From NCBI GenBank assembly GCA_016839365.1, contig JAEOUH010000071.1, positions 1-64,000 of the forward strand: a stretch of 64,000 bases of DNA, given 5' to 3'. Of the stretch, positions 12,025 through 21,456 are shown piece by piece. Source of the stretch: Candidatus Hermodarchaeota archaeon. GTDB taxonomy: Archaea > Asgardarchaeota > Hermodarchaeia > Hermodarchaeales > Hermodarchaeaceae. Made by a program: the position numbers and the translations under genes. A model generated the notes under the pieces. That model worked only from the letters and a program-made list of their open reading frames with translations. It searched no databases and was not told where the DNA came from. How positions within the stretch are numbered: the stretch's first letter is position 1; each line of letters opens with the position of its first letter.

Positions 12025-14244
12025 TTATGGAAATCCCAGACCGAGCATGATGAAGTTCGCAACTCCGCCGAGGAAGAAGGCAAGAATGACGGTTGAGGTT
12101 GCGAGGATGAGCGTGTATTTCCATCGATATTCGCGGAACAATACAGCTATCGTGGCAATGCAGGGAATGTAAATTGTGGTTATGAGGGCAAAGACGAACA
12201 TTTGGCGTGGAGTCATGAAGGTGTTGATTGGGCCATTCGCCAAAATAACCAAAAGTTCCACGGTGAGTTCTTTGCGAAGAATGCCGTAAACAAAGGCAGC
12301 AGCGGTTTCAGCTGGTAATCCGAGCCACCCGACTACTAATGGTGCAGCCCATAGACTAACCATGTAGAGATAAGAGAAATCAGGGGTGGGGAAGTAGAGT
12401 AGAAGACCTAGCACAGCACCTCCGATGATGATTAGAGGAAGGGCGATGTAGACGAACTCGCGGAATCGAAGCCAGGTTTTTTTGAGTGTGGGTTTCAGTC
12501 GTGGGGTGCGTAGGGGTGGAATTTCCATAACGAGTCCATGAGAGGCGCCTGGGAGAGTATGTTGGAGTAGGGCACCTAGACCAATTATAATCCCAAAAAC
12601 AATGGCGAGGATTAGAAAGGCAAAGAAAATCGAGGCATATAAACCCACAGTGCCAAGAATTACTGCTAATTGAGCTGAGCAGGGGACGAGGACGACGAGA
12701 AATCCAGCGATGAGGCGTTCACGGCGTGTAGAAAGAATACGCGTCCCGAGAACGGCGGGAACATTACACCCCATACCTGTTAATAAGGGAATAATTGCGC
12801 GACCATGAAGGCCGAGTCGATGCATGAAGGCATCTAGAAGGAAGGCGATGCGGGCCATGTATCCGGTGTCTTCTAGGATGGAGAGGATGATGTAAAAGGT
12901 GGCCACAAAGGGTACAGCGATGAATAACCACGCTTGGATGCCTAAAACTAGACCATAGTAGAGAATAACTTGAACGATGACAGATGGGACATAGGTAGTG
13001 ATGAGGTATTGTGCTGTGGGGTTGATGAAAGCTTCCCAGAATTCACCGACAGTCGCATCGAAGATCGCGCCAGCAGCAAACATGATGAGGAGCGATCCAA
13101 TCAGAACCAGAAGGGCTATCGGAAGACCAAAAACTCGATCGGTTAGAATGGCTGAGATTTTTTCCGTAAGTGGTACTCGCTTCCCCTTTCCCTGCTGAAC
13201 TTGCTCAGTTAAATAGATGGCGTATTGTTTCCGTTTTTCACCAAGAACAAGAACAATGTCTTCATCGAATTCTTTTTCGATTTCCGTTCGAATCGTTTTT
13301 ACCAGATTGAGTGCTTCTTCAGATTCCAGGCTACTTTCAATACAGGCGGCACATTGGGCATATTCTTCCAGTAATTGTTGGGAAAGGATACGTAAGGGTA
13401 GATTCATGGGGCAGAGTTGCATCTGGCTTAGGCGCTGTTCTAATCGACGGAGTTTCGCTTCGATGCCATTTGGAAACAGGAATCGCCGGGGATTCGGTCT
13501 GACTCCCTTATAGGCGCCACTCTTTGCAGCAGTACGTAAAAGTAGTTTCAGGTTTGTTCCATGAATAGCTACAGTAGGAATGACGGGGACACCCAGAAGC
13601 ATTTCGAGTTTCTTTTCATCAATTTCGATACCCATTCGACGGGCTAAATCCACTTGGTTAAGGCACACAACCATGGGAATATTGAATTCGAGTAGGGCAA
13701 TCGTGAGAAGCAGATTACGCGGAAGGTTAGTTGCATCGACGACGTTAACAATGACATCAGGGGTGTCTTGTTGCAAGTATCGAAGTGTAACCTTTTCGTC
13801 TTCTGTTGAGGGACTAACGATTGTATATGAACCAGGCAAATCGACAATATCGAGTTGTAAGCCTTCAATGGTTTCATCAAAATCTTTCAGTGCCCACTTT
13901 CGAAAGTGTTTGCCAATACCTCTCCCGTGTTGACGCCGTCCAGGTCGGTCTCGTCTAAAAGGTCTGTCATCCTGTTGAAACTCATCTTCTTCTGTGGGTT
14001 GCCAATCTTTAATTCCTGGATGCCATCGAGGAGAGTAGACATCACGATAGGAGAGATAAACAGTCCCTTCAAGGATTTCCACTGTCGTTCCTGGATAATT
14101 AGAGACTATCGCTCCTAGCCCCGTCCAGTTATTGAAGATCACACTCTTTCCAACATTTGGTTGACCTACTAGGGCTATCCGTAAATGATTCAATTCTGGA
14201 AACTGTTTCCTATGACGGAATTTCCGTTTACGTGGGCCCTTCAT
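12025..14244 (-). CDS. feoB: ferrous iron transporter FeoB
   Basis: G1 GQPNVGKS, G2 NYPGTTV, G3 DLPG, G4 NQVD; membrane domain LEDTGYMAR, GMGCNVPA, VPCSAQ, YIPCIAT. Confidence 0.95.
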   Translation of the reverse strand: MKGPRKRKFRHRKQFPELNHLRIALVGQPNVGKSVIFNNWTGLGAIVSNYPGTTVEILEGTVYLSYRDVYSPRWHPGIKDWQPTEEDEFQQDDRPFRRDRPGRRQHGRGIGKHFRKWALKDFDETIEGLQLDIVDLPGSYTIVSPSTEDEKVTLRYLQQDTPDVIVNVVDATNLPRNLLLTIALLEFNIPMVVCLNQVDLARRMGIEIDEKKLEMLLGVPVIPTVAIHGTNLKLLLRTAAKSGAYKGVRPNPRRFLFPNGIEAKLRRLEQRLSQMQLCPMNLPLRILSQQLLEEYAQCAACIESSLESEEALNLVKTIRTEIEKEFDEDIVLVLGEKRKQYAIYLTEQVQQGKGKRVPLTEKISAILTDRVFGLPIALLVLIGSLLIMFAAGAIFDATVGEFWEAFINPTAQYLITTYVPSVIVQVILYYGLVLGIQAWLFIAVPFVATFYIILSILEDTGYMARIAFLLDAFMHRLGLHGRAIIPLLTGMGCNVPAVLGTRILSTRRERLIAGFLVVLVPCSAQLAVILGTVGLYASIFFAFLILAIVFGIIIGLGALLQHTLPGASHGLVMEIPPLRTPRLKPTLKKTWLRFREFVYIALPLIIIGGAVLGLLLYFPTPDFSYLYMVSLWAAPLVVGWLGLPAETAAAFVYGILRKELTVELLVILANGPINTFMTPRQMFVFALITTIYIPCIATIAVLFREYRWKYTLILATSTVILAFFLGGVANFIMLGLGFP

Positions 14245-14265
14245 TTTTCAATCAACTCTGTGGTG

Positions 14266-15009
14266 CTATTCAACCACTTCATGACGGACCCGGACTCGTT
14301 TGGCAAGGTCATGACTCAAAGCAAATTGAGCTGTGCCTACATCAATGAGAAATGTATCTCCTATAGGCGAAATCTGAACTACACGGACGATTTCCCCCGG
14401 AAGCATCCCCATTGAAGACATCATCCGCAACAAATCTATGTTCTCATCACTTATGCAATCAATGACAGCAGATTCACCTTGCCCTAGATCAGCCAAGGTT
14501 AATTGAGGCAGAGGAGTCACAGTTCCATCCAATTCCGGTATGGGATTTCCGTGTGGGCAGGTTGCTGGATCATCTAGTTTTTCGAGAACTCTGTTGCACA
14601 ATTCAGGTGTTAGTAAATGCTCCCATTCACACGCCACATCATGGGCTTCCTCCCAGCTTACACCCAACAGGTCAACAAGTAGGCGTTCGGCGATTCGGTG
14701 CCGACGGAGGACATCCAGAGCGAGTTTACGCCCTTTTGCTGTAAGACGAACACCCTTGTTCTTTTCATATTTCAGATAGGATTTTTCAGCTAACTTTTGT
14801 ACCATCTGCGTCACACTGGCTGGCTTAACATTCAAAACTTCTGCAAGCTCACCGGTTTTAGCATACTTGTCATTGTTTTGAAGCAATCGAAAAATCGCTT
14901 CAAGATACTCTTCAATGCTGGCACTGGGAATTTCATATTTTGAAGCCCGTGAAGCGCTTTTGGAGTCTTCTCTATCGATTTCTGGTTGGGTGTGGGAAGC
15001 AGGAGTCAT
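14266..15009 (-). CDS. DtxR/IdeR/MntR-family metal-dependent repressor with C-terminal FeoA (SH3-like) domain
   Basis: EEYLEAI, SVTQMVQKL, RRHRIAERLL, ACEWEH, CPHGNPIP; FeoA-like SMGMLPG. Confidence 0.93.
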   Translation of the reverse strand: MTPASHTQPEIDREDSKSASRASKYEIPSASIEEYLEAIFRLLQNNDKYAKTGELAEVLNVKPASVTQMVQKLAEKSYLKYEKNKGVRLTAKGRKLALDVLRRHRIAERLLVDLLGVSWEEAHDVACEWEHLLTPELCNRVLEKLDDPATCPHGNPIPELDGTVTPLPQLTLADLGQGESAVIDCISDENIDLLRMMSSMGMLPGEIVRVVQISPIGDTFLIDVGTAQFALSHDLAKRVRVRHEVVE

Positions 15010-16159: not shown

Positions 16160-16540
16160 ATGGCCATGTTAGGCGTTCAACGAATCATGACCGGACAACA
16201 TGTAGAAGCCAACGATGTGATGCACTGCTTCCTCGGTCTTCGGAGCCTCGAAATCGATGTATACTTTTATCTACTCAAAGGCCGGGCTACAGTCAAAGAG
16301 GTCGCAGAAGCCCTCGGACGTAATCGGAGTACGGTTCAACGAGCCATCCAAAACCTTGTGCAGCGGGGATTTGCCCACCGTAGAACACGTACACTCCGCA
16401 AAGGCGGATACGTATACGTATATGAGGCAGTAAGTCTTGCGGCCATGAAGGATCTAATCAGAGCCGCCCTTGATTCGTTTTACAAACAAATCGAAGAATT
16501 CTTGGACCAATATTGGGCTGAATCAACAAAACCAACATAA
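16160..16540 (+). CDS. TrmB-like winged-HTH transcriptional regulator
   Basis: CFLGLRSLEIDVYFYLL...TVKEVAEALGRNRSTVQRAIQNLVQRGF...GGYVYVY. Confidence 0.88.
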   Translation: MAMLGVQRIMTGQHVEANDVMHCFLGLRSLEIDVYFYLLKGRATVKEVAEALGRNRSTVQRAIQNLVQRGFAHRRTRTLRKGGYVYVYEAVSLAAMKDLIRAALDSFYKQIEEFLDQYWAESTKPT

Positions 16541-16543
16541 GCG

Positions 16544-16563
16544 GTTGTGTTCAGTTGTGACAC
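16544..16563. promoter_or_regulatory. candidate operator 2, upstream of the membrane protein/thioredoxin pair
   Basis: GTTGTGTTCAGTTGTGACAC followed by TTTATAT at about 16574. Confidence 0.5.
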
Positions 16564-16659
16564 TACCGATACCTTTATATTTTAACTTTACCACACCCCC
16601 CTCGGAACTGCAAAAGAAGGATAAATACCATCATGCAGTATAATGGACGGTGAAATAGA

Positions 16660-16890
16660 ATGGCATCCATTGGCTGTCCTTTCTGTTCAAAAGTAGGAAT
16701 TATCATGGTCATCACTGGCCTGACATTCATTCTGCTCAGCGTGACAGCCACACTTCCATGGCTGGCCATCATTGGCCTCATCTTCCTGATTGGGGCTTAC
16801 ATCGTTCCCGGACTAGTGAGCGGAGAAAGCTGCCACAGCGAAGGCTGTACTAACCCCTCACATAAACATGGAGAGGAGGACTCACAATGA
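16660..16890 (+). CDS. small 2-TM membrane protein with N-terminal CPFC and C-terminal Cys/His tail
   Basis: CPFC, two hydrophobic helices, CHSEGCTNPSHKH; ATGA overlap with trxA. Confidence 0.7.
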   Translation: MASIGCPFCSKVGIIMVITGLTFILLSVTATLPWLAIIGLIFLIGAYIVPGLVSGESCHSEGCTNPSHKHGEEDSQ

Positions 16891-17306
16891 CTGATATCCC
16901 CGATCCAGAACTCACACGATTACGTGAACAAAAACTCAAGGAGTTACAACATACTATGGCAACAGAATCTAAAACTCCAACCCACCCCCAAGGTAAGGTT
17001 CTCCACCTATCCACCCACGACTTTGACCAAACCATTAGCCAAGGTGTCACCCTTGTTGACTTCTTCGCAGAGTGGTGCGGCCCATGCAAGATGATGGTCC
17101 CTGTCGTAGACAAACTAGCCCAAGAATATGCTGGCCTGGCGAAGGTTGCAAAGGTAGACGTGGATCATAATATCGAAATCGCGATGCGGTATCGCGTACA
17201 AGGTGTACCCACTTTTGCCCTGTTTAAGGATGGCGTGATGGTGCACCGAGTAGTTGGTGGCGTTGGCTATCAGCCACTGAAAACCGCTCTTGACACCTTC
17301 CTTTAA
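16887..17306 (+). CDS. trxA: thioredoxin
   Basis: DFFAEWCGPCK, cis-Pro VQGVPTF; archaeal-type N-terminal ELTRLREQKLKEL extension. Confidence 0.95.
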   Translation: MTDIPDPELTRLREQKLKELQHTMATESKTPTHPQGKVLHLSTHDFDQTISQGVTLVDFFAEWCGPCKMMVPVVDKLAQEYAGLAKVAKVDVDHNIEIAMRYRVQGVPTFALFKDGVMVHRVVGGVGYQPLKTALDTFL

Positions 17307-17433
17307 TGCCCAAATTTCTTTCATTTAAGCAGTCAACCCCGAACTTTTCACGTGGAGCGTTATCGTTGTTGACGGCGATATTTTACTTTTAATAAAAGAA
17401 ATATAATTATAAAGCATACAGGATTCGGTTTCT

Positions 17434-17657
17434 TGAACACATTCCTTCCGTGTTCAGGTGGTTCAAACTCAAGCAGCTCCGAAAATTTTTTATGGTCAAT
17501 TCGGATTTTCGTGAGCTGCTGGACCACCCGAGTAGGGTCTGGAGCCACGAGTGGAAGATTCCAGACCGGTTTTGGGAATCGGGTAACAGCAGCTACCTCT
17601 CACCTTTAAACGGCAATAATGCACGCTGTGCAACCAATCTAACGGAGGATTGGGTCA
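17434..17657 (+). ncRNA. candidate structured non-coding RNA or 5' leader of grpE-dnaK-dnaJ (family unknown)
   Basis: At least four helices seen by eye; G-U wobbles mostly favour the + strand; TTATAAA at 17407-17413 about 25 nt upstream (details in findings). Confidence 0.5.
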
Positions 17658-18311
17658 ATGACTGATAAACCGAAAAAAACTGGAAAAACACCTGTCTCCA
17701 AAGAAAGTGAGGATCGGCTAGCTAAGAGTCCAACACACCCTGAGTCTTCAGTAAAAACAGATAAAACACCAAAGAAACCAACCAGAAAAGAATTAGAGCA
17801 AGCCTTAGAAGAAGCCCAATCCCAAATTGAGAGACACAAAACACGACTTGCTTACCTTCAGGCGGATCACGAGAATTATGTGAAGTCCACTGAACGCCTT
17901 ACCGCTAATCTCCGATTGCAAGCGAATCGTGATCTAATCCTCAGCTTGTTACCCATTTTAGATGATTTAGAGAGAGCACAAATCATGGTTCCCCAGATTG
18001 AAGTAAATACACCTTTCATTGAGGGTTTTTCAATGCTAGTGGAGAACCTTAAAACGGCGTTAGTGAATGCTGGAGTCAAACCAATAGAAAGTGAAGGAAA
18101 AACCTTTGATCCTCTACGGCACGAAGCGGTTGTCCGCGAAGAATCTACAAAAATTCCTCCCAACACCATTATAGAGGAATTGCGAAAAGGATATCTCCTC
18201 AAGGGCACTTTGCTTCGACCATCCATGGTGAAGATTGCGATCGCACCCAAACCCATCCCAAATAAGTCTGAGACTGAAGAATCTGAAGGTAAAGAATCAA
18301 ACACAAAATAA
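17658..18311 (+). CDS. grpE: nucleotide exchange factor GrpE
   Basis: LQADHENY, LLPILDDLERA, FDPLRHEAV, KGYLL...LRPSMVKI. Confidence 0.95.
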   Translation: MTDKPKKTGKTPVSKESEDRLAKSPTHPESSVKTDKTPKKPTRKELEQALEEAQSQIERHKTRLAYLQADHENYVKSTERLTANLRLQANRDLILSLLPILDDLERAQIMVPQIEVNTPFIEGFSMLVENLKTALVNAGVKPIESEGKTFDPLRHEAVVREESTKIPPNTIIEELRKGYLLKGTLLRPSMVKIAIAPKPIPNKSETEESEGKESNTK

Positions 18312-18344
18312 TGTTATATAATTTAGAAATTGGAGTTGAAGAAC

Positions 18345-20243
18345 ATGCCAAAAATTATTGGAATTGATCTCGGAACTAGCAATTCAGCAGCCGCTGTGAT
18401 GCGTGGAGACCGCCCTATCATTATTCCTAGCGCTGAAGGTCCCACGGTCTCCGGGAAAGCCTTCCCATCATATGTTGCTATCACTGATGATGGAACCCGG
18501 CTTGTTGGTGAACCTGCACGGCGTCAGGCTGTTGCAAACCCTGAAGGAACAGTGACGGCTGTGAAGCGGAAAATGGGAACCCGACAGAAAGTGAAAATCC
18601 GGGACAAAACCTTCACACCTGAAGAAGTATCATCATTTATTCTTCGAAAAATCAAAACAGACGCAGAGGCGTTTCTTGGAGAACTTGTAAGCCAAGCAGT
18701 TATCACAGTTCCTGCTTACTTTAATGACAACCAACGCCAAGCCACTAAAGATGCCGGTGAATTAGCGGGCCTCGAGGTCGTCCGCCTCATCAACGAACCC
18801 ACAGCTGCATCGCTAGCCTATGGTATCGACAAGCTCGATAAGGAACTTCGAATCCTTGTCTTTGATCTTGGTGGTGGTACATTAGATGTCACGATTATGG
18901 AATTTGGTCCCGACCCAGATACAGGGAGTGGACTGTTCCAAGTGGTCTCCACTGCGGGCGACACTCAGCTAGGTGGAACCGACATGGACCTTTCAATAGC
19001 TGAATGGCTAGCTGACGAATTTAAAGCAGAGCACGGGATGGACCTCCATGACGACCCTACAGCCTGGCGGCGTCTCCTTGAAGCAGCAGAGAAGGCAAAA
19101 ATCGAGTTATCCAACGTAATTGAGAGTGAAATTAACCTCCCCTACCTCACAGCGGATAAAACCGGTCCAAAACACCTCCAACGCAAACTAACCCGAGCAA
19201 AACTTGAGGATTTAGTCCGAAGTATTGTGGACCGCTGCGATGGTCCAATGCGCCAAGCGATTAGTGATGCAAAATTACGCCCCAACGAGATTGACAAGAT
19301 TATCTTGATTGGTGGACCCACACGGATGCCGATTGTTCGCCAATACGTTGAGAAATTCATTGGTAAGAAAGCCGAACGCGGTGTAGATCCAATGGAAGCA
19401 GTGGCCCTCGGTGCAGCCATCCAGGGCGGTGTTATAACTGGGGATGTCAAAGACCTACTGCTTCTTGATGTTACTCCCCTATCATTAGGGGTTGAAACAA
19501 AAGGCGACATCATGACTCCCATTATCGAACGTAACACAACTATTCCAGTAGAACGAAGCCAAATCTTCAGCACTGCCGCAGATATGCAAACTGTCGTCAC
19601 TATCCACGTGTTACAAGGTGAACGGTCTAGAGCTAGTCAAAACATCTCACTTGGCCAGTTCAATCTTACTGGCATCCCACCAGCCCCAATGGGTGTTCCC
19701 CAAATTGAGGTTACCTTTGACATTGATGTTAACGGCATCCTCCATGTGAAAGCCAAGGACTTGGGAACCGGAAATGAACAGAAAATCACCATTTCTGCTT
19801 CAACCAAACTAACTGAATCCCAAAAAGATAAGATGGTCGCGGATGCCGAAAAGTACGAAGAAGAAGACAAACGCTACCGCGAAGAAGCCGAGGAGCTCAA
19901 CAGGGCAGAATCACTAGTCTATTCAGCCCGGAAGACCATCAAAGAGCTTGGCGATAAGATTAGCGAAGGGGACAAGCAAAAGGTCGAAGACGCTGCGAAT
20001 CGGCTTGAAAAAGCCGTCCAGGATAAGGACCTTGCAACTGCAAAGCAAGAGATGGAAACCCTTACAGATATTTTACAAGGAGTCGGAACTGCCGTGTACC
20101 AGCAAGTCGCCGAGGAACAAGCTCGGGCTCAAGCTCAGGCTGGAGTAAAGGAAGAGGCTGAATCCGAACCGAAAAAGAAGAAGGGTAAAGAAAAAGTCGT
20201 TGATGCTGATTATGAAGTCGTTGATGATGAAGACAAGAAATAA
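18345..20243 (+). CDS. dnaK: Hsp70 chaperone DnaK
   Basis: [39 protein letters not shown]; ATG 18345 (track starts at TTG 18330). Confidence 0.98.
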
Positions 20244-20343: not shown

Positions 20344-21456
20344 GTGAGTTACGGGAGCAATCAAAAACGGGACTACTATGAAGTACTCGGTGTAGATCGG
20401 AAAGCCACAAAGGCTGAAATTCGAAGTGCTTATCGTAAACTTGCTCTGAAGTATCACCCAGACCGGAATAAAGAATCTGATGCAGCTGAGAAGTTCAAAG
20501 AGATCTCAGAAGCCTATGCAATACTATCGGATGATGACAAACGCCTCCAATATGACCAGTTCGGTCACGCTGGCATCTCCGGACGTTATAGTGCCCAGGA
20601 TATATTTGGTGGCGTTAACTTCGAAGACATCCTACGCAGTTTCGGCCTCGGAGGTGGTCTAGGAGGCTTTGGAAGCATCTTTGATTTCTTAATGGGACGA
20701 GGCGCAAGACGACCTTCCCAACGAGATCAGGCTATCGATTTACGATACGACATGAAAATCTCGCTCAAAGAAGCTGCAACTGGTATCGAAAGAGAAATTA
20801 CAATAAAACGCGACGAACAGTGCCCCAAATGTGGAGGCAGCGGTGGAGAGCCGGGAACCCCTATGAAAACTTGTTCTCGCTGTGGCGGACGTGGCGAATT
20901 ACGCCAAGTCCAACAGACAATGTTTGGGCAAGTAATTCGAGTCGCCACCTGTCCTGAATGTGATGGACAGGGGAAAATAGTGGAAACAGCTTGCTCTGAA
21001 TGCAGAGGAAAACGCACTGTTCGGGAAAAACGGAGTATTCGTGTCCAAATCCCCCCTGGAGTTGAATCGGGGTCAATGCTTAGGCTGAAAGACCAGGGTG
21101 CTTCGTACAACGGCAGCCCACCAGGTGATCTTTATGTTGTTGTGCATGTACAACCTGATGATACTTTCCAGCGTGTTGGCGATGACATCATCATAGAGCA
21201 ACCGATATCATTCACTCAGGCAGCATTGGGGGCGGAAATTGAGGTTCCTACACTGCTTTCCAAAGCCAAGTTAAAGATTCCTGCAGGAACACAACCTGGC
21301 ACGATTTTACGGTTGCGAGGACAAGGGATGCCCCGGACCCGATGGCGAGGAAACGGTGATCAACTCATCCAAATTAAGGTTGAAGTACCTAAGAAGCTGA
21401 GCCGACAGCAGCAAGAACTCCTGGAGCGACTTGCTGAGGAACTGGAGGAAAAGTAA
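20344..21456 (+). CDS. dnaJ: chaperone DnaJ
   Basis: J domain with HPD, G/F region, four CxxCxGxG-type repeats. Confidence 0.97.

Follow-up and report, generated by a model that had tools for sequence, protein, structure and literature searches.

Probable overlapping promoters and a structured leader upstream of the grpE-dnaK-dnaJ operon in one Hermodarchaeota genus, with a candidate trans-acting RNA

What is the densely folded stretch that separates trxA from the grpE-dnaK-dnaJ operon in this Hermodarchaeota genome, and which transcripts would carry it? A sequence-only reading of the window (the whole stretch of DNA that was analyzed, 64,000 nucleotides) had proposed a novel non-coding RNA or a thermosensor or riboswitch leader of an archaeal Hsp70 operon. 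In the window, a stand-alone gene for a TrmB-family (OxsR-like) regulator (16160..16540, + strand; Pfam PF01978), whose position is kept in the relatives of the genus, forms the upstream context. It is followed on the same strand by the thioredoxin gene trxA (16887..17306; PF00085), grpE (17658..18311; PF01025), dnaK (18330..20243; PF00012), and dnaJ (20344..21456; PF00226, PF00684, PF01556). The trxA gene lies directly 5' of grpE in 16 of the 16 family genomes where the contig allows this to be seen. The neighborhood contains further candidate regulatory features. Immediately 5' of the BRE/TATA of the small membrane protein-trxA unit lies a palindromic motif of the GTGC-N9-GCAC type (16553-16592). 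It is conserved in the sister genus as well as in every relative from the genus itself, and is the probable site of the adjacent TrmB/OxsR-like regulator. In addition, the leader of this CxxC membrane protein-trxA unit contains a hairpin with covarying arms, ACTGCA/TGCAGT (16617-16648), and a DtxR-type regulator gene with a FeoA domain followed by feoB (12025-15009, minus strand) is located near the redox/chaperone cluster.

The arms of the three hairpins named by the earlier reading were all located at their described positions: A at 17434-40/17450-56, B at 17457-64/17521-28, 17472-79/17513-20, and 17480-88/17503-11, and C at 17536-43/17560-67, together with an alternative partner strand at 17587-94. 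The folding energy of 17430-17605 was -64.6 kcal/mol, with a z score of -3.76 against shuffles on the plus strand and an equal one (-3.83) on the minus strand; since both strands fold equally well, the strand of the element is not given by energy alone. Of 92 windows sampled along the contig, just 2 reached a z score of -3.5 or lower, and hairpins A and B alone (17435-17528) gave -6.2. Some finer details of the earlier fold were present in the sequence and unconserved, namely an inner 3-bp hairpin of C and a small hairpin after C, which overlaps the 3' arm of C. A pseudoknot suggested between the bulge of B and 17530-33 was dropped, as its fourth pair is seen in 1 of 8 close relatives and is unconserved. 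An upstream open reading frame at 17450-17665 was likewise rejected, since its frame and start codon vary among relatives. At gathering and E-value thresholds, Rfam returned chance miRNA hairpins only, and neither the AbcR1 and cuckoo families nor the riboswitch aptamers matched the element. The description of a conserved, structured, single-copy region 5' of grpE-dnaK-dnaJ without an Rfam match was sustained. The DNA of the locus is present in two runs, as contigs that are silent on transcription.

One Hermodarchaeota genus alone carries the element. All 18 distinct spacers of the genus retain both the downstream leader and the core of hairpin B. In a sample of 121 genomes, a covariance model of the leader matched once in each of 12 members of the genus and had no match in any other Asgard genome. 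An upstream block, consisting of the trx hairpin with its U-tract, a TATA box at about 17406-13, hairpin A, and the strand 17457-64, was restricted to six genomes and two contigs from metagenomes. These eight sequences (the P1 set, after the promoter P1 described below) encode GrpE and Trx proteins 62-88% identical to those of the studied locus, and the six genomes form one monophyletic clade with full support in the tree. The locus is a real genus-restricted regulatory region. Deeper Hermodarchaeota relatives (L147/L148, L149) have long GC-rich grpE leaders of unrelated sequence.

Within hairpin B, conservation was strongest in the upper part of the 5' arm and in the first half of the loop, which is unpaired. 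Because the conserved bases include an unpaired loop, pairing cannot account for this conservation. Judged by its sequence, this arm and loop is a canonical archaeal promoter core, designated P2 (17480..17494, + strand), with the BRE at 17480-86 and the TATA box at 17487-94, near-invariant in 18 genus sequences. It is followed by an AT-rich initially melted region and a pyrimidine-purine initiator (17505..17518, +), recognized by spacing and a conserved purine. All four elements agree with the archaeal TBP/TFB consensus, which places the BRE at -36..-32 and the TATA box at -30..-23, with an AT-rich melted region and a YR initiator (PMC6640164). With the Pyrococcus spacing (PMC6640164), P2 is predicted to start at 17517-17518 (G17518 +/-1), and 17518 remains a purine after T even where a pair of B is thereby broken (L141, L019). 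The upper stem of B is then an on-paper pairing of the predicted BRE with the predicted melted region. With a matrix trained solely on the thermosome promoter cores of the family, P2 ranked 4th-7th among 4.4 million positions, and the other top matches were mostly intergenic and near genes. The sister genus and two deeper relatives have a different yet clear TATA box at the P2 position, and in the sister genus, where hairpin B is absent, an AT-rich block lies at an equal distance from it. We infer that P2 is the ancestral promoter of grpE-dnaK-dnaJ. A start near 17633, as proposed earlier, found no support.

P2 also resembles known heat-shock promoters. Its core equals the BRE and TATA core of Halobacterium hsp5, which is heat-inducible, at 12 of 13 nt, and the CGAA element of Haloferax cct1 is also present in it (PMC2396416). 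The strong BRE/PPE of Sulfolobus heat-shock genes (PMC10653856) is a like promoter core, and P2 is similar to the thermosome promoter cores of its own genus. However, both thermosome promoters share a downstream motif that P2 lacks (rank 1693 with the full matrix), and heat induction of P2 is therefore only plausible. No operator shared with the thermosome or hsp20 promoters was found. Several observations were made on related genes. The two thermosome genes of the family (L150, L151, L154-L181) carry a strongly conserved 18-nt motif right after the TATA box, without another match in the genome, which is likely a Hermodarchaeota heat-shock promoter signature. In another Asgard family (L028, L035, L036), the conserved grpE promoter CGAA-N4-TTTATATA-GAAG resembles the Haloferax cct1 elements. 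An Hsp20 gene (L153:1183-1722; G000:C6:7562-8101) follows the L30 ribosomal-protein gene throughout the genus; in the studied genome it lies between L30 and L15, within the ribosomal-protein operon.

The predicted P2 transcript begins with a structured 5' leader of 140 nt (17518..17657, +). It comprises hairpin C (17536-67), a basal helix (17527-31/17572-76), and a weak closing helix (17518-21/17587-90), in which 76% of cells are paired and one pair is compensatory. In hairpin C both sides were changed in 8 of 9 pairs, and its covariation score exceeded those of all 500 shuffles and all slid controls, which identifies it as real RNA structure. The C part of the leader is refolded in one subclade. 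The grpE Shine-Dalgarno (SD) sequence (17644..17649, +) is conserved in the genus, whose 16S tail is a standard anti-SD. Hairpin C leaves the SD uncovered and probably serves stability or protein binding.

A second set of signals is found upstream, in one clade of the genus only. The trxA gene is followed there by a hairpin with an 11-bp stem and a U-tract (17329..17390, +), in which 4 pairs have changed in a compensatory way among 7 sequences and which is absent from other clades. It is probably the end of the trx transcript. Directly downstream is a BRE and TATA box, promoter P1 (17399..17413, +), kept in 8 of 8 P1-clade sequences. The earlier suggestion of a TATA box at 17407-13 with a start near 17435 is supported by conservation and spacing: beyond a variable spacer, conservation sets in abruptly at G17435, the predicted start (+/-1), 29-31 nt after the start of the TATA box, in agreement with the reported spacing (PMC6640164). 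We consider this two-promoter anatomy (P1 + P2) very probable. The P1 RNA would begin with hairpin A (17434..17456, +), a 6-7-bp stem with a 9-nt pyrimidine loop. Positions 17435-17461 (27 nt) were invariant in 8 of 8 P1 sequences, and no covariation was found in hairpin A. Invariance and a target match mark 17440-17451 as a candidate seed, and by its sequence the predicted RNA would combine a promoter of its own with a conserved exposed seed, as expected of a trans-acting base-pairing sRNA. Hairpin A was not found in viral contigs or in the other Asgard families searched, and a weak BLAST look-alike on contig C46 lies within coding sequence.

The candidate target is the start region of a gene for a family-5 ABC solute-binding (peptide-type) protein. 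Positions 17440-17451 of hairpin A are a perfect 12-nt complement of this region (G000:C45:11791-11802, minus strand), and apart from hairpin A this start region is the only place in the genome where the 12-mer occurs. Both the first AUG and a purine motif resembling an SD lie within the match, which was the best for the hairpin A seed among 2322 start regions. It was found post hoc; in 1.2-5.8% of trials a shuffled hairpin matched one of the starts over 12 nt, and random stems did so in 13% of trials when the loop was held fixed. The target holds a 22-nt block invariant in the six P1 genomes, the longest of 50 orthologous starts (median 5). Its 5-bp hairpin with a purine loop and a 3-bp extension were seen in P1 genomes only. 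The predicted net pairing was -7.6 to -8.8 kcal/mol after opening both RNAs, and complementarity to the translation-initiation region was conserved in 6 of 6 P1 genomes. In this model, the target geometry suits loop-loop kissing followed by strand exchange. Taken together, it is possible, if somewhat doubtful, that hairpin A is part of an AbcR1/GcvB-like trans-acting sRNA.

Several results limit how this match can be read. Neither seed nor target varies, which leaves no compensatory change to be seen, and because the P1 clade is monophyletic, the co-occurrence of seed and target counts as one event. Five genomes that lack hairpin A likewise keep the 12-nt target core unchanged, and a search of non-P1 genomes (77-88% complete) gave no relocated seed. 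In this genus the purine motif often occurs as a variant SD, and it may simply act as the SD of a conserved UUG located 12 nt downstream. The search for a second conserved target yielded none. The hsp20, urocanase, and enoyl-CoA hydratase genes were rejected as further targets, since their purine motif is a labile SD variant, and one further solute-binding paralogue has the motif in one genome only. The solute-binding gene has features of its own. Its 5' leader (L248:2170-2250, minus strand; G000:C45, upstream of 11793) contains a covarying, interrupted hairpin of 11-12 bp, conserved in 11 genomes (z -4.7, no Rfam match), which is a candidate for a separate cis-regulatory RNA. The protein itself (L248:272-2194, minus) has the look of a circular permutation: residues 452-597 align with profile positions 4-140, and the N-terminal part aligns with later positions of the profile.

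The best overall explanation, which we hold with slightly less than even confidence, is that of two overlapping transcription units, one of them yielding a P1 RNA with a trans-acting hairpin A. P2 would drive the chaperone operon through the folded leader with hairpin C, and one clade of the genus would have gained the trx terminator, P1, and hairpin A upstream of P2. The P1 RNA might end after about 57 nt (17491) at the U-run that is also the P2 TATA box. Archaeal termination involves U-tracts and aCPSF1 (PMC10450193). Alternatively, it might read on, fold the rod of hairpin B, and survive as a 94-nt A+B species, or, as a third option, continue as a long leader. Loop A would kiss the purine loop of the small hairpin at the start of the peptide-binding-protein mRNA, and the contact would extend to 12 bp, with 3 more after a 2x2 loop. 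Such pairing in the cell is predicted to cover the SD-like motif and the first AUG, and it would lower synthesis of the peptide-uptake protein. That an Asgard trans-acting sRNA arising on an Hsp70-operon promoter silences a peptide ABC-transporter mRNA by loop-loop kissing is a tentative proposal. With similar reserve, the chaperone TATA box would double as the U-tract or loop of the sRNA, and transcription at the chaperone locus would be coupled to peptide uptake.

The same promoters would also fit a different role for the palindromes, as DNA or as stabilizing hairpins. Hairpin A would then either overlie the P1 start as a 7-N9-7 operator or protect the 5' end as a stem, the transporter match would be due to chance, and the 8-bp inverted repeat flanking P2 (17472-79/17513-20; 17472..17520, no strand assigned) would be an operator. 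This reading, which we regard as rather unlikely, is favored by the lack of covariation in hairpin A and by the conservation of the target core without it. It agrees with the 8-bp repeat, in which the same substitutions occur in either half, whether pairing survives or not, often breaking RNA pairing. Hairpin B (17457..17528, +), a long rod that would exist only in transcripts starting upstream of P2, was also unpredicted in most non-P1 genomes: the pairing probability of its lower stem was <0.2 in 7 of 10 non-P1 read-throughs. Over 18 sequences B was 93% paired, with 1 compensatory pair in 16, no better than shuffles. Operator spacers normally vary, whereas the 9-nt loop of A was invariant in 8 of 8 sequences. 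In addition, the palindrome has no second copy in the genome, nor any in 300 Asgard genomes beyond the orthologous site, and a search of this 84%-complete genome with PF01628 yielded no HrcA. Of the 6 changed cells of the 8-bp stem in the P1 clade, 5 were G-U compatible, and the lower stem of B had a pairing probability of 0.92-0.98 in 7 of 8 sequences and 0.62 in one. A clade-specific extension at its base, together with its prediction in all eight sequences, makes it probable that B folds as RNA in this clade. The 8-bp repeat would be an RNA stem in P1 transcripts and is possibly a DNA operator in origin.

Hairpin A could instead act in cis, its loop pairing over 6 bp with the grpE SD in a long P1 leader. 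Long transcripts would then be poorly translated and short P2 transcripts active, and promoter choice would set chaperone output. RNAalifold did pair 17443-48 with the SD in the P1 alignment, and the loop-only duplex had -7.6 to -7.9 kcal/mol in 6 of 8 sequences. This arrangement is nevertheless improbable: the SD is changed in 2 of 8 sequences while the loop is unchanged, and the nested pairing probability at 37°C was at most 0.16 in 7 of 8 (pseudoknots lie outside this model). Moreover, six pairs fail to account for 27 invariant nucleotides, and grpE was 93rd among the 2322 starts ranked for the hairpin A seed.

The sequence-only reading had emphasized two mutually exclusive folds, and a single leader toggling between B and the alternative helix by heat or ligand could control dnaK translation or elongation. 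Both helices do exist, and the closing helix retains some pairing. Folding at several temperatures, as had been suggested, kept B favored in the long transcript: the alternative fold was 8 kcal/mol worse at 37°C, and the gap, 12.5 kcal/mol at 20°C, had narrowed to 1.8 kcal/mol at 55°C. However, the full 8-bp alternative helix is intact in the studied genome only, where its last 4 bp would close the P2 leader, and the invariant arm and loop of B are accounted for by P2. Neither fold covers 17644-49; a conserved helix sequestering the SD, as in a thermometer, was absent, no terminator was found after the folds, and no expression platform of either kind was coupled to them. Across 8 homologues, opening the SD cost 0.5-6.8 kcal/mol, and long leaders did not differ consistently from short ones. 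With the SD uncovered and no terminator, a thermometer or riboswitch is without support, and we consider the switch very improbable. A P1 transcript would form B and a P2 transcript only the alternative helix; given the predicted starts, the two folds would therefore belong to two transcripts rather than to one molecule that switches. This case is a caution that a promoter with a palindromic BRE and melted region can mimic an RNA switch. Finally, the dense inverted repeats might suggest an already known ncRNA, a MITE, or a repeat that has nothing to do with the operon. This is hardly credible for an element without an Rfam match that is present once per genome, always at grpE, is absent from viral contigs, and has no notable complementarity to the 16S rRNA of the genus (a 16S guide role was rejected accordingly). 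The 16S rRNA gene of one genus member (L365; G005:C71:619-4212) is about 3.6 kb long, indicating about 2 kb of introns or insertions.

Asgard archaea are a lineage close to the ancestor of eukaryotes. In the literature, of which our coverage was incomplete, we found no sRNA-mRNA pair, regulatory leader, or promoter architecture for Hermodarchaeota, and no regulatory RNA for an archaeal grpE-dnaK-dnaJ operon. If the trans pairing is true, bacterial-style RBS-masking riboregulation of peptide uptake would operate in Asgard archaea, with an unusual overlap of an sRNA gene and a chaperone promoter. If the trans pairing fails, a genus-restricted structured leader and a clean promoter pair remain as useful annotation.

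The locus can be compared with several known systems. ROSE and fourU RNA thermometers are structured leaders of heat-shock genes; unlike them, the leader described here has no conserved helix over the SD. CIRCE, a 9-N9-9 consensus repeat, acts with HrcA. As in CIRCE, an inverted repeat is located at the grpE-dnaK-dnaJ promoter and the half-site is loosely alike, whereas the spacer is 33 nt rather than 9 and the half-site has an extra base. A CIRCE/HrcA system was rejected on this spacing and on the failure of PF01628 to detect HrcA.

Enterobacterial GcvB has a C/U-rich single-stranded module complementary to SD-like sequences. Similarly, AbcR1 and AbcR2 of alphaproteobacteria carry such a module, as hairpin A does, and AbcR1 affects DppA among others, while the predicted target of the P1 RNA is likewise the mRNA of an ABC substrate-binding protein (PMC4152367). 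In contrast to AbcR1, the P1 RNA has no sequence or Rfam match to it, has one predicted target rather than a regulon, belongs to an archaeal host, and overlaps a chaperone operon promoter, its pairing being predicted from sequence. An archaeal parallel is sRNA162 of Methanosarcina mazei, which masks a ribosome-binding site in trans, yields stable processed 5' fragments, and is physically tied to its neighboring gene (PMC3510493). sRNA162 is antisense to that neighbor and has an unstructured linker, whereas the P1 RNA would be sense to the chaperone operon and would present its seed in a hairpin loop.
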